From a virus (taxonomy: Duplodnaviria; Heunggongvirae; Uroviricota; Caudoviricetes): 34,082 nt of DNA. Position 1 is the stretch's first letter, and every line of letters begins with the position of its first letter. The DNA is taken from positions 1-34,082 of IMG/VR virus record IMGVR_UViG_3300045988_014597; one strand, given 5' to 3'. Shown piece by piece: positions 1 to 34,082 of this stretch. The notes under the pieces were generated by a model. That model was not told the DNA's origin, did not search any database, and saw nothing but the letters and a program-made list of their open reading frames with translations. The position numbers and the translations under genes were made by a program.

Positions 1-23
1 CCCTATTATATTGGGGTGTGCAA
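1..23 (-). promoter_or_regulatory. Partial family B promoter (TTGCAC-N17-[TACTAT outside window]) pointing leftward out of the window
   Basis: Reverse complement of 1-23 is TTGCACACCCCAATATAATAGGG, nearly identical to the -35 and spacer of the promoter at 21236-21258. The -10 would lie just before position 1. Confidence 0.45.
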
Positions 24-130
24 GTAGTGTGCTAGAATAAGTTTGCGCCTAGTGTCGCACACGAAAAGCGGGTGGTTCCCGTCTGGCGCATTAACCTTAA
101 CCTGTAACCTCTTAACCAAAGGATTAAAGA

Positions 131-20926: not shown

Positions 20927-20955
20927 TTGACTTTTCACTGAAAATATGCTAAGCT
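20927..20955 (+). promoter_or_regulatory. Strong sigma70-like promoter with extended -10 (TTGACT-N17-TGC-TAAGCT), copy 1
   Basis: TTGACT at 20927-20932, TG at 20947-20948, TAAGCT at 20950-20955. Confidence 0.6.
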
Positions 20956-21037
20956 CCACCTGAGCTTGTGAAGTATGAACAAGCGACCGCGGTGCGGCAG
21001 GAGAACGGAGCGGTGCGTTAGCACTGAGTGTAGTGTC
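20927..21037 (+). repeat. Dispersed direct repeat R1 (promoter plus conserved leader), about 110 bp
   Basis: Aligns with 33971-34082. The first ~66 nt differ at 2 positions; the remainder has two single-base indels and more substitutions. Confidence 0.85.
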
Positions 21038-21235: not shown

Positions 21236-21264
21236 TTGCACACCCCAACATAATAGGATACTAT
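21236..21264 (+). promoter_or_regulatory. Family B sigma70-like promoter (TTGCAC-N17-TACTAT) with embedded palindrome AATAG-N4-CTATT
   Basis: Palindrome at 21252-21265; the promoter, leader and start share about 63 of 66 positions with the reverse-strand copy near 33841-33904. Confidence 0.6.
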
Positions 21265-21298
21265 TCACTTATCGAAACGAGACATAAGGAATTTAGAA

Positions 21299-21517
21299 AT
21301 GAACAAAGCGACCGCAAGCGTAGTTTCCGCAATCAAAGAAGTTTACGGCATCGATATTTCAGAGCGCGTAATCATCGGTAATAAGCGCAACTTCTTTACG
21401 TTCGACACCGACGGAATGGATGAAAATGATTTTATCAACGTACAACGTTTCGCTAATGATAGAGGGCTTCGTAACGAGCCTGCAGGTTACAAGAAATTCG
21501 CTATCTACTTTAAATAA
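21299..21517 (+). CDS. Hypothetical protein, 72 aa
   Basis: First ORF after the family B promoter; AAGGA RBS. Confidence 0.6.
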   Translation: MNKATASVVSAIKEVYGIDISERVIIGNKRNFFTFDTDGMDENDFINVQRFANDRGLRNEPAGYKKFAIYFK

Positions 21518-26203: not shown

Positions 26204-26503
26204 ATGAGTAGTAGCACATTAGATAAAATTGAAAAAATGCAGGTCATCCTGCGAAATATGAAATCAGACATTAAGCGACAGGACCGGTTGAATTCAATAA
26301 ACAGAATGGAACTAACTACGAAGCAAGCGCAGAAGCGCAATGCTGAAGCGGCATGGATAGCAATGGAACAGATTAAGCGCCGTCATGAATTGCATGCCTT
26401 GTCTGTTGAGTTGGGGTTTGCAGAACGAAGGGATGATTATAGCGCAATAGAGTTAACTGACGGATGGCATTGCTTTACTTACAAACCAAGAGAGCCAGAT
26501 TGA
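26204..26503 (+). CDS. Hypothetical protein, 99 aa
   Basis: ORF with a plausible start context. Confidence 0.55.
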   Translation: MSSSTLDKIEKMQVILRNMKSDIKRQDRLNSINRMELTTKQAQKRNAEAAWIAMEQIKRRHELHALSVELGFAERRDDYSAIELTDGWHCFTYKPREPD

Positions 26504-27401: not shown

Positions 27402-27947
27402 ATGAAGCTGAAACTTAAGCAGCCATCGCCAGAGGTGGTGCAAGCTGCACATGAAGAAGCTGTTAGCGCAAACCGTCGCCGTAAACGACCGCGCGGTAAA
27501 CAGAGCCTTTATCAATCGTCCCGTAACTCCGCTGCGCTGTGGGACCCGGACTATTGCGACGAATTGATTAGTTTCTTTGACCGCACGTCATGGGAACTTG
27601 TGCCCACGTCTAAGGGTGACGAACGTCCGCTGATTCAGGATAAGCCACCATCTCTGGCCCGCTTTGCCTTACACATCGGCGTCACTATCCCTATTATCAA
27701 GCTGTGGCTGCGTGAGATTCCCGCATTTGCAGAAGCCTGGGAGACCGCACAGGCGCTTGAAGAGGCGTACTTCACTGAGACCGGGGCCGCAGGCATCTCG
27801 GCTACGTTCGCTGCCGCGAAACTTGGCCTTGGCAAAGAGAAACCGGTTGAATCCACCGAAGAAACAGCACCAACCGAGATTATTTTTAGTGTTGCGGAGC
27901 CTGTAGGTAAAATCGTAACAACGAATATGGGCGAGGTAGAGGAATGA
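27402..27947 (+). CDS. Terminase small subunit, about 181 aa
   Basis: Immediately upstream of and overlapping the large terminase; basic N-terminal region. ATG at 27402 with an AAGGGGA RBS. Confidence 0.6.
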   Translation: MKLKLKQPSPEVVQAAHEEAVSANRRRKRPRGKQSLYQSSRNSAALWDPDYCDELISFFDRTSWELVPTSKGDERPLIQDKPPSLARFALHIGVTIPIIKLWLREIPAFAEAWETAQALEEAYFTETGAAGISATFAAAKLGLGKEKPVESTEETAPTEIIFSVAEPVGKIVTTNMGEVEE

Positions 27948-29194
27948 GTATTCAGCTATCCGCACCACAGGCACTGTTCCTGAATTGCGATAACAAATAC
28001 AAAGCCTATGTTGGAGGCTTCGGAAGCGGCAAGACATTTGTCGGCTGTCTGGACCTGCTTACGTTTATGCTCAAGCACCCCGGTACGCGCCTGGGCTACT
28101 TCGGCCCGACCTATCCCGCCATCCGTGACATCTTCTACCCAACATTCGAGGAAGCGGCTAACCTGCTCGGCCTTGATGTGCTGGTTAAATCCGGCGACAA
28201 AGAAGTCGTGGTTACTCGCGGTAAGACGGTGCTCGGGACCGTTATCTGCCGCTCTATGGATAACCCCGGCTCGATTGTGGGTTTCAAAATCGCCGCAGCA
28301 TGCGTGGATGAGCTGGACGTATTGAGTCGTGAGAAAGCTGAGCTGGCGTGGAACAAAATTGTGGCCCGTATGCGTCTGGTTATCCCAGGTGTAACTAACC
28401 ACATCTCCGTTACCACGACGCCGGAAGGGTTCAAGTTCGTCTACGCCAAGTTCAAGGAGAACCCGACACCGAGTTACTCGATGGTGCAGGCTTCCACACA
28501 TGAGAACGCGCGATTCCTGCCGCCGGATTACATTAGCTCGCTGACTGAGACTTACCCAGCACAGTTGATTAACGCGTATCTGAACGGTGAGTTCGTTAAC
28601 CTGACCTCCGGCAGCGTGTATTACGCATACGACCGCCGTAAGCACCGCAGCAAAGAGACAATTCAACCGGGAGACACTTTGTACATCGGGCAGGACTTCA
28701 ACGTTACGAAGAACGCCAGCGCTGTGTATGTGCAGCGTAAAGACGGCTGGCATGCGGTGGCTGAACTGAAAGGCCTGTTTGATACGCCAGACACCGTGCG
28801 CGTAATTACTGAGAAGTGGAAGTCACAAGGCCACCGCATCGTTGTTTACCCGGACGCCAGCGGCAAGAACCGCAAGACAAACTCGGCATCAATCTCAGAT
28901 ATTGCATTACTCCAGCAGGCCGGGTTCGATGTTCGCGCTAAATCCGCCAACCCCCCGGTTAAAGACCGTGTTTTAGCGGTGAATACCGCGCTGGAAAAAG
29001 GTAAGCTGTGGGTTAATGACCACCTATGTCCTGAGATAGCGAAGACGCTGGAGCAGCAGGCATACGACGATAACGGAGAGCCAGCTAAAGACGGCGTCAT
29101 TGACCATATGGCGGACGCTCTAGGCTATCCTGTAGTTTACGAGATGCCGGTGGTTAAACCAGTAATCAACATCCCGGTGACTTTCGCACTTTAA
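27944..29194 (+). CDS. Terminase large subunit, 416 aa
   Basis: Walker A GGFGSGKTF near the N-terminus; nuclease-sized C-terminal half; position before the portal gene. Confidence 0.9.
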   Translation: MSIQLSAPQALFLNCDNKYKAYVGGFGSGKTFVGCLDLLTFMLKHPGTRLGYFGPTYPAIRDIFYPTFEEAANLLGLDVLVKSGDKEVVVTRGKTVLGTVICRSMDNPGSIVGFKIAAACVDELDVLSREKAELAWNKIVARMRLVIPGVTNHISVTTTPEGFKFVYAKFKENPTPSYSMVQASTHENARFLPPDYISSLTETYPAQLINAYLNGEFVNLTSGSVYYAYDRRKHRSKETIQPGDTLYIGQDFNVTKNASAVYVQRKDGWHAVAELKGLFDTPDTVRVITEKWKSQGHRIVVYPDASGKNRKTNSASISDIALLQQAGFDVRAKSANPPVKDRVLAVNTALEKGKLWVNDHLCPEIAKTLEQQAYDDNGEPAKDGVIDHMADALGYPVVYEMPVVKPVINIPVTFAL

Positions 29195-29206: not shown

Positions 29207-30679
29207 ATGTTAACTATGAACGGTCAGAATCAGGGTGTTAAGACTAAACACCGGGAGTGGCTGCATCACTTCGATAAATGGCAGAAGGTGCGCCATGCGC
29301 TTGAGGGAGACCTTATTCGCTATCTTCGCAACGTCGGAAAGAATGAGCCGGACCCGACCTACGCAGCCCAGCGCCAGGAAGAATACGAGAACGGTGCTAT
29401 CTGTTACAACTTCACTAAACGTACCCTGGCGGGGATGGTGGGGTCGGTGATGCGCAAAGACCCTGAGCAGATTATTCCGCCTGAGCTTGAGTATCTGTTA
29501 CGCAACGCCGACGGTTCCGGTGTCGGGCTGTGGCAGCACGCGCAAGACACGCTGATGGAGATTGACTCGGTGGGCCGTGGCGGGTTGCTGGTGGACGCCC
29601 CGGAGACAGCTGCGGCAACGGCCGCCGAACAGAACGCGGGGTTATTAAACCCGACAATCGCATTCTATACCGCGGAGAACATCATCAACTGGCGACTAAC
29701 CCGCATCGGCTCCGTTAACCGTGTGACGATGGTCGTGTTACGTGAGGTGTGGGAATACTCAGAACCGGGCGCAGAGTTCGAAACAAAATTCGGTGAGCAA
29801 TACCGTGTCCTCGATTTAATTGACGGGCGCTACCGCCAGCGCATTTACCGCTTCGATGCAGAAGGTGGCGCACAGGGTGAAGTAAAAGAAATATTCCCGG
29901 AACTTGGCGAACAGTTGCGCGGTAGAATCCCGTTCACGTTCATTGGGGCGAGCAACAACGATGCGACCATCGATGACGCTCCTTTGCTGCCGTTGGCTGA
30001 ACTTAATATCGGGCACTTCCGTAACAGTGCGGACAATGAAGAATCCAGCTTCGTTGTAGGCCAGCCCACTCTGTTCATCGCCCCCGGCGAGAACATGAGT
30101 ACGGAACAGTGGAAAGAAGCCAACCCTCACGGCGTGCGCATGGGGTCGCGCTCAGGCCATAACATCGGGTATGGCGGTAATGCGTTTCTGGTTCAGGCAG
30201 AGGAGAACAACCTGGCCAAACAGAACATGCTGGATAAAGAGAATCAGGCCATCCAGATTGGCGCGCAGCTTATCACCCCGACGCAGCAAATAACCGCTGA
30301 ATCAGCCCGCCTGCAACGAGGCGCCGACACGTCCGTTATGGCAACAATCGCACGGAACGTAAGCATGGCATATACCGATGCGTTGCGCTGGGTTGCTGCG
30401 ATGCTAGGGTTGAGTGAAGGCACAGAGATTGAGTTCAAACTTAACATGGAGTTCTTCCTGCAACCGATGACCGCTCAGGACCGTGCTCAGTGGATGGCGG
30501 ATATTAACGCGGGCCTGCTACCGGCTACCGCTTACTATGCGGCATTGCGTAAGGCTGGCGTAACTGACTGGACGGACGAGGACATTCAGAACGCTATAGA
30601 GGACGCTCCGTTGCCGTTGGGCGCGGTTACTCAGGTGGCGGGGGAGATTCCTCAGTCGGCGCAGCATCAACAGGAGTAA
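29207..30679 (+). CDS. Portal protein, 490 aa
   Basis: Size and position immediately after the large terminase; acidic C-terminal region. Confidence 0.75.
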   Translation: MLTMNGQNQGVKTKHREWLHHFDKWQKVRHALEGDLIRYLRNVGKNEPDPTYAAQRQEEYENGAICYNFTKRTLAGMVGSVMRKDPEQIIPPELEYLLRNADGSGVGLWQHAQDTLMEIDSVGRGGLLVDAPETAAATAAEQNAGLLNPTIAFYTAENIINWRLTRIGSVNRVTMVVLREVWEYSEPGAEFETKFGEQYRVLDLIDGRYRQRIYRFDAEGGAQGEVKEIFPELGEQLRGRIPFTFIGASNNDATIDDAPLLPLAELNIGHFRNSADNEESSFVVGQPTLFIAPGENMSTEQWKEANPHGVRMGSRSGHNIGYGGNAFLVQAEENNLAKQNMLDKENQAIQIGAQLITPTQQITAESARLQRGADTSVMATIARNVSMAYTDALRWVAAMLGLSEGTEIEFKLNMEFFLQPMTAQDRAQWMADINAGLLPATAYYAALRKAGVTDWTDEDIQNAIEDAPLPLGAVTQVAGEIPQSAQHQQE

Positions 30680-30684
30680 AATGG

Positions 30685-30706
30685 AAAGGCCCCATTATGG
30701 GGCTTT
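30685..30706. terminator. Bidirectional intrinsic terminator between the portal gene and the convergent methyltransferase gene
   Basis: AAAGGCCCC-ATTAT-GGGGCTTT; the methyltransferase stop codon lies in the loop. Confidence 0.65.
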
Positions 30707-31447
30707 AGCTTTATATGCTTCAGATATGCGTCTTCTGGCTATACGGAAGTAGTCGCGGTCTAGTTCCATACCTATAAACTTCCGGTTTGTGTTCGCACAC
30801 GCAACTCCGGTTGTCCCGCTACCCATACAGTTATCAAGAACTGTATCCCCTTCGTTTGTGTATGTTTTAATCAGGTATTCCATGAGTGCTACTGGCTTTT
30901 GTGTCGGGTGTACTGTGCCACCCTCATTATCAAAACGTAAAACAGAATCTGGGTATCCCGTTTGCGTCTGACGATACGTATCTTTGTGAGAAGGCCGGGT
31001 GTTAACGAAGGCCCTGTCTTTCCTAATATTGGTAAGGGTTACGTCACACTGCCTGACCCCTTGCGGGTTGTATGCCATACGGCGTTCACTTTTATTCGCT
31101 GTGGTCCCTTTGCTGAAAACCGCGATTTCCTCATGCCCTCTTAATGGCTTATTTTTAGCATTAAATACATCACCTTTTCTGCTCTTCACCCATATCCAGC
31201 AGTATTTAAACATATCCATATTTGACGCTATAAGGGCTGTGGTGAACGGCTGCGCACAGGTTAAAACTATAGCACCACGGCCCGTTATTATTCGGGAATA
31301 ATGAAACCATAGTTGGTCAAATGGAAGCACACTATCCCACTTACATGAAGTGGTGCCATAAGGTAAATCGCACAGTATAAGGTCGATACTTTTGTCCGGT
31401 ATGCCGGCCATCAACTCCAAACAATCCCCACGTTTCAAAGTAAACAC
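30695..31447 (-). CDS. DNA methyltransferase, N6-adenine / N4-cytosine family, 250 aa, GTG start
   Basis: Catalytic tetrapeptide region LILCDLPYG (a DPPY variant) N-terminal to the SAM motif VLDNCMGSGTTGVA; GGAGG RBS; own family B-type promoter. Confidence 0.8.
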   Translation of the reverse strand: MFTLKRGDCLELMAGIPDKSIDLILCDLPYGTTSCKWDSVLPFDQLWFHYSRIITGRGAIVLTCAQPFTTALIASNMDMFKYCWIWVKSRKGDVFNAKNKPLRGHEEIAVFSKGTTANKSERRMAYNPQGVRQCDVTLTNIRKDRAFVNTRPSHKDTYRQTQTGYPDSVLRFDNEGGTVHPTQKPVALMEYLIKTYTNEGDTVLDNCMGSGTTGVACANTNRKFIGMELDRDYFRIARRRISEAYKAKAP

Positions 31448-31475
31448 TTTAACACCTCCTGTTTAAGTTAGCAGA

Positions 31476-31504
31476 ATAGTACCCTATTATATTGGTGTCT
31501 GCAA
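31476..31504 (-). promoter_or_regulatory. Family B-type promoter (TTGCAG-N17-TACTAT) with embedded palindrome GAATAG-N4-CTATT, driving the methyltransferase
   Basis: Reverse strand reads TTGCAGACACCAATATAATAGGGTACTAT; palindrome at 31474-31488. Confidence 0.6.
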
Positions 31505-31548
31505 ATATTATTTTTATGCGTTACACTGTCGATACTACAGGAGGGCCT

Positions 31549-32592
31549 ATGAGCTTACTTACATCCTTAATCAGCCACCAGATATGGCTGCAACGCGCCG
31601 CATCCGGTGAAGTGAAAGACCTCACACCGTTCATTAAGGAGATGCGGGACGAAATCAAACGGCAGGTGCTGTTATTCGGCGACGATGGCCGTAGCACTGC
31701 GCGACTGAATAAACTGTTACGCGACCTCGAAGAAGCACTGACCGGGCTTACAGGTGACTGGCAAACAAAGCTGACAGAAGACCTTAAGGATCTGGCGGCG
31801 TATGAGGCTGAGTGGAATGTGAAGACACTGACCGCCAACGTTAACACGGAATTTGTTACACCTACCGCCGAACAGGTGTGGGCCGCTGCCGAGTTTCAGC
31901 CTCTGTCACTTAGTGACAAGCCTGTTGACTTCACTAAGCTGATGTCAGGTTGGGGTGAAGCGGAGGTCGCGCGCCTGGTAACTGGCGTTAAGATGGGCTT
32001 TGTACAGGGCCAGACAACGCGGCAGATTGTTAAAAGTGTTGTCGGCGCTGGCGGGCTGGCTGACATCTCCGAGCGTAACGCCGCTACAGTAATACGTACC
32101 GCACTGTCCCACGTATCCAACGAAGCCCGTAACGAGACGTACCGCCAGAACGACGACATCATCGAGAAATACGAGTGGGTGTCGACGCTGGACAGCCGTA
32201 CCAGTACGATTTGCAGGGCCAGAGACGGGATGACGTGGGAAATCGGTAAAGGTCCGAGGCCCCCAGCCCATCCGAATTGCCGAAGTACCACTGCGCCCGT
32301 AATCAGTTCGGAGTTCGACTTCCTCGATAAAGGCGCAAAACGCGCGGCTAAAGGCGCAGACGGCGGCACTCAGGTAAGCGCAGACACCACTTACTACGAG
32401 TTCCTGAAACAACAACCAGCGTGGTTTCAAGATGAAGCGCTCGGCCCGGTGCGAGGTAAGATTTTCCGTAACAGCGGTATAACGCCGGAAGAGTTTCGCG
32501 TAATATCTGTAGATGGTTTCGGGAATCCGCTGACGCTTAAGCAGATGGCGGAACTCGATAAACGTGTTGCTGATTATCTGAAAGGGGAATAA
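31549..32592 (+). CDS. Head morphogenesis protein (SPP1 gp7 / Mu F-like), about 347 aa
   Basis: C-terminal signature YEWVSTLDSRTSTICRARDGMTW...PPAHPNCRSTT; GGAGGG RBS before ATG 31549. Confidence 0.85.
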   Translation: MSLLTSLISHQIWLQRAASGEVKDLTPFIKEMRDEIKRQVLLFGDDGRSTARLNKLLRDLEEALTGLTGDWQTKLTEDLKDLAAYEAEWNVKTLTANVNTEFVTPTAEQVWAAAEFQPLSLSDKPVDFTKLMSGWGEAEVARLVTGVKMGFVQGQTTRQIVKSVVGAGGLADISERNAATVIRTALSHVSNEARNETYRQNDDIIEKYEWVSTLDSRTSTICRARDGMTWEIGKGPRPPAHPNCRSTTAPVISSEFDFLDKGAKRAAKGADGGTQVSADTTYYEFLKQQPAWFQDEALGPVRGKIFRNSGITPEEFRVISVDGFGNPLTLKQMAELDKRVADYLKGE

Positions 32593-33053
32593 TGATGGGC
32601 TTTTTCAAAGTAACTGATGTGCCGTCGCGTCGCGTAGTTCAGTACGCCCGAGTGTCTGGCTCTGGCGAGAACGTGGTATTTATTGAAGATGAAAGTGTAC
32701 TAGGCGCACCAGTAGACGATATGCCGTTTGCAGATAAAACCGGTATTGCGCTGCCAGCGGCGGGTATGCTTTACGAGATTCCGTATCTGGCAGACGCTGG
32801 CGACGTGTATTTCTCTGTGCAACCAAAAGATGCAGAACTGACCGATGGCAGCGCAACCATCACTGTCGAGGTTAAGGCGGGCAAAGCGCCGTATGTGCTG
32901 ACCTGGTACAAAGACGGTAAGGAAGTGGTAAATGCCCCGGAAGAGGCTTTGTCTCTGACGGTTAATGCAGTTGGTGAATACTTCGTTAAAGCCACCGATG
33001 CTGATGGTGTAGAGGCGGTAAGCAAAGCGGCGAAGGTTACTAAGCCAGAATGA
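32592..33053 (+). CDS. Ig-like domain protein, 153 aa
   Basis: C-terminal half resembles an Ig-like fold (ITVEVKAGKAPYVLTWYKDGKEV...EYFVKATDADG). Role as a decoration or structural protein not determinable. Confidence 0.5.
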   Translation: MMGFFKVTDVPSRRVVQYARVSGSGENVVFIEDESVLGAPVDDMPFADKTGIALPAAGMLYEIPYLADAGDVYFSVQPKDAELTDGSATITVEVKAGKAPYVLTWYKDGKEVVNAPEEALSLTVNAVGEYFVKATDADGVEAVSKAAKVTKPE

Positions 33054-33054
33054 T

Positions 33055-33077
33055 AAAAGGCCCCATTACGGGGCCTT
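33055..33077. terminator. Bidirectional intrinsic terminator
   Basis: AAAGGCCCC-ATTAC-GGGGCCTT, nearly identical to the hairpin at 30685-30706; the stop of the convergent reverse-strand gene lies in the loop. Confidence 0.65.
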
Positions 33078-33374
33078 AACTTTCCATACTTCCCTTAGCG
33101 CTACGAGTTTATGATTACCGATATCCCTTGATATTATTGAATCTGTAAAACCATTGAACCATGATTTCATCCAGTCAGACGTTCTGAAATCTGAGTATAG
33201 AATATGTATTGTTTGCGGGGCGTCTACATCGTAATGCTGGCACACATAAACACAACCGCTGGCGAATATAACAGCTTTAAACGTATCGTAGTCTTCTGAA
33301 TCCGGGAACTCGCTAGAGTCCCCGACAAGATATCTGTACGCGTATTTTTTAGTAGTCTTCTTTCTTTTCCGCAT
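33066..33374 (-). CDS. Hypothetical protein, 102 aa
   Basis: ORF in an AT-richer reverse-strand block; basic N-terminus. Confidence 0.5.
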   Translation of the reverse strand: MRKRKKTTKKYAYRYLVGDSSEFPDSEDYDTFKAVIFASGCVYVCQHYDVDAPQTIHILYSDFRTSDWMKSWFNGFTDSIISRDIGNHKLVALREVWKVKAP

Positions 33375-33383
33375 GGCGATTTC

Positions 33384-33623
33384 TCAGAAGTGTATTACTG
33401 GTTGTTTAAACTTCCAGTCACAATCTACCTGTTTAATAACGCCTTTCGCAACAAGGCTGTCTATGAACTCCTGACCTGAATTCGTCTTGTACCATGTATA
33501 TCTGTTCCCGACTTTTACGCCGGGTAGGCTATGGTACACAACACCGTCAACCACCATAAAAGAGACGCCGATAGTACCTTTTTCTGCATAGAGTTTTTTA
33601 CCCGCACTGCTCATGTAGCACAT
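33384..33623 (-). CDS. Hypothetical protein, 79 aa
   Basis: ORF in the same block. Confidence 0.5.
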   Translation of the reverse strand: MCYMSSAGKKLYAEKGTIGVSFMVVDGVVYHSLPGVKVGNRYTWYKTNSGQEFIDSLVAKGVIKQVDCDWKFKQPVIHF

Positions 33624-33655
33624 CTCCCACGTAGATAGTTAGTAAGGTAAGGCCC

Positions 33656-33841
33656 TTAGGCCTTACGAATTGTATACCCATACCCAAGGTAGCCGTTTTT
33701 CTCTTGCATAGCGGAGGCGCGAAGCAGAGCAGCATTCTCACCTTTAACTACGGCGACCACATAATCGGTAGCGTCCGGACCGTTTTCTACAACTTCATAC
33801 GCCTGTACGTTCTTGGTGGTAAGTTCATATGTGTTAGTCAT
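33656..33841 (-). CDS. Hypothetical protein, 61 aa
   Basis: Driven by a family B promoter and leader that matches the + strand cassette at 21236-21301. Confidence 0.55.
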   Translation of the reverse strand: MTNTYELTTKNVQAYEVVENGPDATDYVVAVVKGENAALLRASAMQEKNGYLGYGYTIRKA

Positions 33842-33875
33842 TTCTAAATTCCTTATCTCTCGTTTCGATAAGTGA

Positions 33876-33904
33876 ATAGTACCCTATTATGTTGGTGTGT
33901 GCAA
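33876..33904 (-). promoter_or_regulatory. Family B promoter (TTGCAC-N17-TACTAT) with embedded palindrome GAATAG-N4-CTATT
   Basis: Reverse strand reads TTGCACACACCAACATAATAGGGTACTAT; palindrome at 33874-33888. Confidence 0.6.
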
Positions 33905-33970
33905 ACTATTTATTTACCTATTCCAATTATCCCACTAAATTGTAAATGTTGGAATAAACTATTCGAATAG

Positions 33971-33999
33971 TTGACTTTTCACTAAAAATGTGCTAAGCT
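33971..33999 (+). promoter_or_regulatory. Strong sigma70-like promoter with extended -10 (TTGACT-N17-TGC-TAAGCT), copy 2
   Basis: Same architecture as 20927-20955; preceded by the perfect palindrome CTATTCGAATAG at 33959-33970. Confidence 0.6.
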
Positions 34000-34082
34000 C
34001 CACCTGAGCTTGTGAAGTATGAACAAGCGACCGCGGCGCGGGCAGGTAACGGAGCGGGACGTAAGTCCTGAGTGTAGTTACG
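33971..34082 (+). repeat. Dispersed direct repeat R2 (promoter plus conserved leader), truncated by the window end
   Basis: Aligns with 20927-21037. Confidence 0.85.

Follow-up and report, generated by a model that had tools for sequence, protein, structure and literature searches.

How does a gene for a DNA methyltransferase come to lie, in reverse orientation, among the packaging and head genes of a phage, and are the signals that surround it its own? The question is raised by a stretch of 34,082 nucleotides from a Caudoviricetes virus (IMG/VR record IMGVR_UViG_3300045988_014597, analysed from end to end and hereafter called the window), in which such a gene is found between the portal gene and a Mu-F-like head morphogenesis gene. 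Over the 10 kb around it, the window matches Kagunavirus phages (Guernseyvirinae; K1-capsule and other coliphages) with 87–91% nucleotide identity, and the phage that carries it appears virulent. An earlier note on this DNA had described a moron, i.e. a complete imported expression unit with its own promoter and terminator. Our analysis leads to a partly different answer. It is probable that the gene encodes a functional orphan beta-class amino-methyltransferase, carried as the optional cargo of a fixed expression socket, swapped between phages, expressed early and protecting the progeny DNA.

The open reading frame (ORF), its Pfam match and an AGGAGG motif 7 nt ahead of the start codon all agree with the earlier note's reverse-strand N6/N4 methyltransferase gene with a ribosome-binding site between the portal and head genes (coordinates in Table 1). 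The homologues have an ATG at the codon equivalent to the GTG start of the window. The protein matches Pfam PF01555 (N6_N4_Mtase; E = 2.1e-28, 100.3 bits for a cut-off of 26.7), with residues 21–238 aligned to profile positions 1–220 of 221, and PHROG 67 (E = 1e-78). The order of its motifs is that of the beta class, the catalytic motif IV (DLPY) being N-terminal to motif I (DNCMGSGTTG), which binds S-adenosylmethionine (SAM). An AlphaFold model was built on 28 homologues, with a predicted local distance difference test score (pLDDT) of 78.7. Searched with Foldseek against the PDB, this model found as best matches the beta-class N6-adenine enzymes CcrM, M.BceJIV, M1.HpyAVI, M.MboIIA and M.RsrI (E from 1e-14 to 1e-16; for CcrM, 6pbd, E = 1.6e-16 and TM 0.68). 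No partner nuclease was found: there is no further minus-strand ORF of at least 40 aa between the hairpin and the promoter, the remaining ORFs of the cassette are shorter and antisense to the methyltransferase gene, and the neighbouring genes encode the portal and Mu-F proteins. Judged by its sequence, the gene is an ordinary and intact stand-alone (orphan) gene for a predicted beta-class N6/N4 DNA methyltransferase. It resembles the beta-class N6-adenine enzymes and the phage orphans of PHROG 67 in fold, motif order, size class and the absence of a partner nuclease, whereas it differs from the former, with which it shares 21–25% identity, by DLPY throughout its subfamily in place of DPPY.

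Two alternatives concern the specificity and the chemistry of the enzyme. M.EcoGII and Hia5 are phage-derived adenine methyltransferases with relaxed or no sequence specificity, and a similar enzyme would give broad protection instead of modifying one motif. In favour of this alternative, the protein has only 250 aa, the stretch that joins its catalytic and SAM-binding halves (residues 91–190) is short and modelled with low confidence (block-mean pLDDT 53–81), and the subfamily is widespread across phages of many hosts, 1,371 phage records holding a homologue. However, the closest solved structures are all those of sequence-specific enzymes, and we regard a relaxed specificity as unlikely. An N4-cytosine methyltransferase is more improbable still. 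PF01555 spans both chemistries, the rotifer N4CMT and M.PvuII are also among the fold matches, and one homologue (H46) is annotated as N4-cytosine-specific, but every one of the top fold matches is an N6-adenine enzyme. Moreover, motif IV begins with Asp, as is typical of adenine methyltransferases, the N4-cytosine enzymes usually having Ser at this position. Most probably, the substrate of the enzyme would be adenine, methylated at N6 within a short recognition sequence.

Few kinds of accessory gene are commoner in phages than orphan methyltransferases. From the 50,697 phage records searched, no isolated phage has a homologue with more than 65% amino-acid identity, and close copies (88–100%) were found only in metagenome assemblies. 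The identical protein is present on nine independent contigs of public metagenome assemblies, one of which (L023) also encodes a portal C-terminus, a Mu-F protein and an Ig-like protein 100% identical to those of the window, which probably stems from the phage population represented by that contig. By itself, the methyltransferase therefore adds little, being a very common kind of enzyme whose exact protein is already in public assemblies. In addition, three homologues (P0009, P0025 and P0119) are 62–69% identical overall to the methyltransferase of the window, yet a C-terminal stretch of about 75 residues (VHPTQKPVALMEYLIKTYTNEGD...YKTKAP) is almost identical, which suggests recombination within the gene.

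To describe the occupancy of the interval between the portal and Mu-F genes (slot 1), we used 77 IMG/VR loci that were fetched by their Mu-F protein, hence without bias towards any cargo. The junction between the two genes was resolved in 37 Kagunavirus-like loci. Slot 1 is empty in 25 of them, with the portal and Mu-F genes 69–75 nt apart, while the other 12 carry 15 different cargo families. The methyltransferase was not found in slot 1 in any of these 37 loci. When all the loci surveyed are considered, 36 cargo families are found in this slot. The methyltransferase gene also deviates in composition: its GC content is 45.0%, with 43.8% at the third codon base (GC3), compared with 53–56% (GC3 59–65%) for the terminase, portal and Mu-F genes. 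The empty slot in most relatives and the deviating GC content bear out the earlier note on an acquired insertion, and no conserved, ancestral part of the head module is seen here; the distribution indicates that the gene is accessory at this site. A host origin was also considered and is unsupported, since in 5,426 complete E. coli genomes no match extended over more than 20% of the gene. The other cargoes of slot 1 include a PAPS-reductase-like protein (PHROG 33262; L014, 6371–7183), an amidase-like protein often found in Jerseyviruses (PHROG 6095; L002, 7423–8073) and a 173-aa clamp/RusA-like protein (PHROG 3007; L011, 3371–3892). For this last family, the GenBank labels are inconsistent (DNA polymerase III clamp vs. 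RusA resolvase).

Then, we investigated the signals around the gene. In relatives, a promoter of the same type as that of the methyltransferase stands ahead of the 173-aa clamp-like protein, of a 93-/94-aa protein or of a three-ORF cassette, in several cases with the leader TTAACTTAAACAGGAG, and the hairpin GGCCCC-loop-GGGGCC follows the portal stop codon in all these relatives with an alternative cargo. This hairpin is found in the equivalent place in almost all related loci. The leader (31455–31470 in the window, minus strand) is shared with unrelated cargo in L001, L007 and L009 (173-aa and 94-aa proteins) and with the methyltransferase of slot 2 in L016; presumably, it resembles the translational-enhancer leader of T7 gene 10 (TTAACTTTAAGAAGGAG). 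The window itself has a second slot, 2.4 kb downstream of the first, whose cargo lies between diverged copies of this hairpin and of the promoter.

The promoter proposed by the earlier note corresponds to a motif that is repeated in the window and conserved in relatives, i.e. a putative promoter recognised as a sequence element. The conserved block (31474–31516) is rich in A/T in its upstream part, and its -10 element lies within an imperfect palindrome, AATAG-GGTA-CTATT. In the related loci, 60 copies (26 distinct) yield the consensus TTGCanaCnCCaAtATAATAGGGTACTAT, with an almost invariant 17-nt spacer that contains TATAAT. The 20-nt motif of this promoter is also found upstream of seven transcription units in phage fBC-Eco01. 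One further copy, on the plus strand of the window, heads an operon of 53–86-aa ORFs diverging from the replication genes.

Both slots exchange their contents. Slot 1 holds the methyltransferase in the window and in L022–L026 (contigs with the identical protein; P0006), and slot 2 does so in L002, L010, L014–L021, L033 and L039. The methyltransferases of slot 2 include P0001–P0005 (proteins 91–95% identical), P0119, two IMG/VR loci and Jerseyvirus S102. When slot 1 of the window is aligned with slot 2 of a relative that carries a 92%-identical methyltransferase, homology extends from the promoter (~31510) to the hairpin (30685), and the flanks are unrelated. Conversely, the cargo of slot 2 in the window is mostly 86–98% identical in nucleotides to that of slot 1 in vB_EcoS-K1_SXAU_B4, the closest isolate, with equal boundaries. 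In both alignments, identity rises from 40–50% to 80–100% at the hairpin and drops again at the promoter. Across all loci, at least seven cargo families, the methyltransferase among them, were found in both slots.

The end of the cargo is itself part of the hairpin. The methyltransferase and the unrelated 102-aa product of slot 2 both end with K-x-K-A-P (30695–30706 and 33066–33077), because the last codons and the stop (AAA GCC CCA TAA) belong to the hairpin. One recombination junction would therefore lie within the coding end.

From these comparisons, promoter, leader and hairpin are best read as the phage lineage's own repeated signals, which the gene did not bring: they flank unrelated cargo at the site and in a second slot, and the promoter heads the small-ORF operon as well as the seven units of fBC-Eco01. 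On this point, the complete imported expression unit of the earlier note does not hold. A self-contained foreign moron, with promoter, gene and terminator acquired in one piece from an outside source, would account for the low GC content of the unit and for the fact that the block common to the slot-1 and slot-2 methyltransferase copies is precisely the unit from promoter to hairpin. Nevertheless, identical promoters, leaders and hairpins around unrelated cargo at the site in relatives, together with the promoter copies at 21236 and in fBC-Eco01, largely refute this alternative, which we consider very unlikely. The slot of the methyltransferase is instead, on the sequence evidence, a moron-like cassette in a recombination hotspot. 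Since the same pair of promoter and hairpin brackets the second socket, these elements can serve as short homology arms. The sockets are direct repeats around essential genes, and a simple intragenomic crossover would delete these genes; a double crossover between co-infecting genomes is therefore the exchange that we infer. As the sequence boundaries suggest, the cargo would be replaced by double recombination between co-infecting phages, in the same socket or between sockets, the gene being the optional content of a fixed frame formed by the lineage's sigma-70-type promoter with leader and ribosome-binding site on one side and a GC-rich hairpin on the other.

The morons of lambdoid phages, reportedly described by Juhala et al. 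in 2000, provide a first comparison. The methyltransferase unit shares with them an insertion between genes that are adjacent in relatives and a deviant base composition; a putative promoter and a predicted terminator, both conserved as sequence elements, lie upstream and downstream of its gene, and on sequence features it would qualify as a moron. In contrast with lambdoid morons, its signals are native to the lineage, the phage is apparently virulent, and the site is reusable with many alternative cargoes. The second comparison is with the promoter/stem-loop (PeSL) cassettes of T4-like phages, in which repeated early sigma-70-like promoters with an A/T-rich upstream stretch and GC-rich stem-loops are found at the most variable loci. 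Accessory genes, mostly without a known function, lie between these elements, at which the segments swapped between related phages begin and end. The promoter activity, terminator activity and mini-circles of PeSLs have been demonstrated (PMC2839356, PMC4122927). Here too, promoter and hairpin motifs are repeated at variable loci, and the end points of swaps coincide with them. However, a PeSL is a composite of promoter and stem-loop between tandem genes in hyperplastic regions, whereas the putative promoter and the hairpin described here lie at opposite ends of a reverse-strand cargo within a late structural operon, with only two or three sockets per genome. As its regulatory signals are native and reusable, the methyltransferase cassette is closer in its logic to the PeSL cassettes than to a moron.

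We tentatively propose, at slightly less than even odds, a more general reading, in which the head module of Guernseyvirinae would contain a small set of expression sockets (near-invariant promoter/operator, leader with ribosome-binding site, and a hairpin that encodes the end of some cargo proteins) whose built-in homology arms exchange accessory and anti-defence genes between sockets and between co-infecting phages, as a siphovirus counterpart of the PeSL. The genes so traded would comprise the methyltransferase, the PAPS-reductase-like and clamp-like proteins, and dozens of small proteins without known function. No description of such an architecture for Guernseyvirinae was found in the literature, access to which was limited. 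Known methyltransferases of the same family are those of Jerseyvirus S100–S123, dunkel and ER23 (annotated as "adenine-specific methyltransferase" or "dpnA"), which have 63% identity, belong to the same phage subfamily, and share the reverse strand, the hairpin and the promoter. They differ from the gene of the window (slot 1) by their location in slot 2 after the Ig-like gene, slot 1 being occupied by another gene. The socket architecture is more interesting than the methyltransferase and merits a systematic survey. Kagunavirus and Jerseyvirus phages are popular candidates for phage therapy, and it is in the two or three sockets of their structural module that accessory genes relevant to host range are gained and lost; the sockets are also natural, pre-equipped insertion sites for payload genes. 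Furthermore, the parallel with PeSL suggests that promoter- and terminator-guided exchange of cargo is more general among virulent phages that trade accessory genes.

The same promoter type heads the small-ORF operon, which has the usual look of an early operon, and early expression of the methyltransferase is therefore likely. The time-course transcriptome of vB_Eco_K1B4 (= SXAU_B4) gave no timing for the slots, as hardly any of their genes are included in its gene calls and only one early gene is named in the text. Transcription would start early at the lineage promoter, and the hairpin would end the minus-strand transcript, which would otherwise continue antisense into the portal gene. Replicating phage DNA would then be methylated by the enzyme, so that the progeny resist restriction enzymes cutting the same motif. 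Protection of progeny DNA from restriction is a known function of phage orphan methyltransferases, and an anti-restriction role is the most likely one here. A regulatory methyltransferase, acting on the timing of packaging or expression in the way that Dam methylation times packaging at the P1 pac site, would be favoured only by the position of the gene beside terminase, portal and head genes. But the site is either empty or occupied by one of at least 36 unrelated cargo families, the methyltransferase is equally found in the other slot, and most relatives package their DNA without this gene. The position thus reflects the socket and not the function, which makes a regulatory role, if anything, a little less probable than the foreign moron.

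Only 7 GATC sites are present in the 34 kb, whereas a maximal-order Markov model predicts about 115 (~16-fold under-represented, z = -10). In addition, CTAG is found at 0.41 of its expectation, and several 6-bp palindromes (AAGCTT, GGTACC, GGCGCC) are nearly absent from the window. This composition indicates that, independently of the methyltransferase, sites for restriction or Dam enzymes are strongly avoided. The Dam enzyme of phage T1 was tried as a characterised relative and is unrelated (BLASTP E = 5.7). Together, the scarcity of GATC and the dissimilarity to T1 Dam argue weakly against a Dam-like role of the methyltransferase.

The bidirectional terminator of the earlier note corresponds to a terminator-like hairpin predicted on both strands, with 9 pairs on the plus strand, 6 on the minus strand and a T-rich tail after each. 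The more stable fold is that of the plus strand (-19 kcal/mol, z -2.55), i.e. the late strand is the side on which the hairpin is the better predicted terminator. As empty slots also retain the plus-strand hairpin after the portal gene, late transcription must cope with it regardless of any cargo. The earlier note's view that the placement of the gene spares late transcription is not supported by these features. A 99-aa ORF product (26204–26503, plus strand) is identical to one on contig L023 with the precomputed Pfam tag PF26859 (Phage_N_antitermin). This tag was not reproduced with our local copy of Pfam, and the product belongs to PHROG 25091, without known function. An antiterminator function of this product, if confirmed, could account for read-through of the hairpins in the late operon.

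Several points weigh against our preferred reading, an early-expressed protective methyltransferase as socket cargo. The solved structures nearest to the enzyme are only 21–25% identical to it and have five different specificities, so its target motif is not assignable. On the strand of the methyltransferase, the hairpin has only 6 bp and -12 kcal/mol (z -1.14), and is no stabler than shuffled sequence. The promoter fits the sigma-70 consensus weakly (7/12, i.e. 3/6 and 4/6), and its near-invariant spacer suggests an additional function beyond that of a promoter. No methylation, expression or plating data were found in the literature for the methyltransferase or a close homologue. Finally, the motif of the seven units of fBC-Eco01 was called a phage-RNA-polymerase promoter in the paper describing that phage (PMC9825357). 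No phage RNA polymerase is annotated in the fBC-Eco01 genome. A generic sigma-70 scan missed the promoter at 31504..31476, its matches in the region being no more than expected by chance, and the promoter claim is therefore based on repetition and conservation. This conservation exceeds the need of a plain sigma-70 promoter and hints at an operator.

The earlier note had singled out DLPY as an unusual variant of DPPY that might affect activity. Position 2 of the motif is indeed Leu and does not match the textbook motif IV, (D/N/S)-P-P-(Y/F/W), which is a variant of the motif and not its loss. Among the 120 best homologues, 117 have DLPY, two DPPY and one DMPY, and D27, L28, P29 and Y30 are invariant across 28 aligned homologues (59–95% identity). 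Compared with six homologues of about 12% nucleotide divergence (synonymous divergence Ks ~0.55), the ratio of nonsynonymous to synonymous divergence (Ka/Ks) is 0.05–0.09, a sign of strong purifying selection on the gene. Given this near-invariance and the low Ka/Ks, DLPY is the standard catalytic motif, maintained by selection, in a large phage subfamily; the motif is neither degenerate nor unusual within it. In motif IV, the Asp side chain and a backbone carbonyl contact the target amino group, and a Leu at position 2 is thus chemically plausible. An inactive relic, in which the change from Pro to Leu abolishes catalysis, agrees with the deviation from the textbook motif but hardly with the conservation of DLPY, the Ka/Ks, the intact ORF and the identical protein on nine independent contigs, and is the least credible alternative. 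No mention of a DLPY motif was found in the searchable literature, nor anything relevant on the methyltransferases of Kagunavirus, Guernseyvirinae or Jerseyvirus. Annotation pipelines and readers should not mark DLPY as degenerate, since it is a legitimate catalytic motif. A further, smaller possibility is an unusual substrate range of the DLPY subfamily.

Table 1. Position of the features of the two slots and of their surroundings in the window
Feature	Position	Strand	Remarks
Small terminase gene			First in the head/packaging order, before the large terminase gene
Large terminase gene	27944–29194		
Portal gene (DUF4055)	29207–30679	+	Left border of slot 1
Predicted terminator hairpin, AAAGGCCCCATTATGGGGCTTT	30685–30706	both	Directly after the portal stop; methyltransferase stop codon in the loop
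Methyltransferase gene	30695–31447	-	250 aa, GTG start; between the portal and Mu-F-like genes
SAM-binding motif I region, DNCMGSGTTG	~30806–30835	-	Residues 205–214
Motif IV, DLPY	codons 31369–31358	-	Residues 27–30
5' leader, TTCTGCTAACTTAAACAGGAGGTGTTAAA	31448–31475	-	Shine-Dalgarno AGGAGG at 31460–31455
Putative promoter core, TTGCAG (31504–31499) - 17 nt - TACTAT (31481–31476)	31476–31504	-	Upstream of the methyltransferase gene
Mu-F-like head morphogenesis gene	31549–32592	+	Right border of slot 1
Ig-like protein gene	32592–33053		After the Mu-F-like gene
Slot 2	33056–33916	-	After the Ig-like gene; hairpin 33056–33092, promoter block 33874–33916 (84% over 43 nt)
Paralogous hairpin	33056–33092		Slot-2 end; 84% over 37 nt with the first hairpin
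Slot-2 cargo, three ORFs	33066–33374, 33384–33623, 33656–33841	-	102, 79 and 61 aa; GC 41–47%
Putative promoter copy	33904–33876	-	29-mer with 2 mismatches; 0.00 expected from shuffles
Putative promoter copy	21236–21264	+	Heads the small-ORF operon
Putative promoter copy	1–26		Third copy besides slots 1 and 2; cut by the window edge
GATC sites	1654, 8175, 13983, 16599, 22865, 27375, 31789		Whole window

The promoter copy at the left edge of the window has a counterpart in fBC-Eco01 (L011, 13113–15148), where it stands at the head of another reverse-strand cluster, the third. This cluster follows the tail-tube gene, precedes or adjoins the tail-chaperone gene on its other side, includes a superinfection-immunity-like gene and is probably a third socket. 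Two other repeats link slot 2 with the small-ORF operon. Positions 21236–21302 recur in inverted orientation at 33838–33904 with 96% identity, as a block of 67 nt that comprises the promoter, the leader and the first codons. Upstream of both promoters (the copies at 21236 and 33876), a direct repeat of 108 nt (20927–21034 and 33971–34078) is 88% identical; it may represent a promoter or leader element of the plus strand that both sites have in common.

For the Mu-F-like gene, the true start is the ATG at 31549, with GGAGGG upstream, and the TTG at 31492 given by the ORF tool is wrong. In some relatives, this gene encodes 619–645 aa with an intein (Pfam Intein_splicing; L015, 1411–3348, and L017, 1411–3270).

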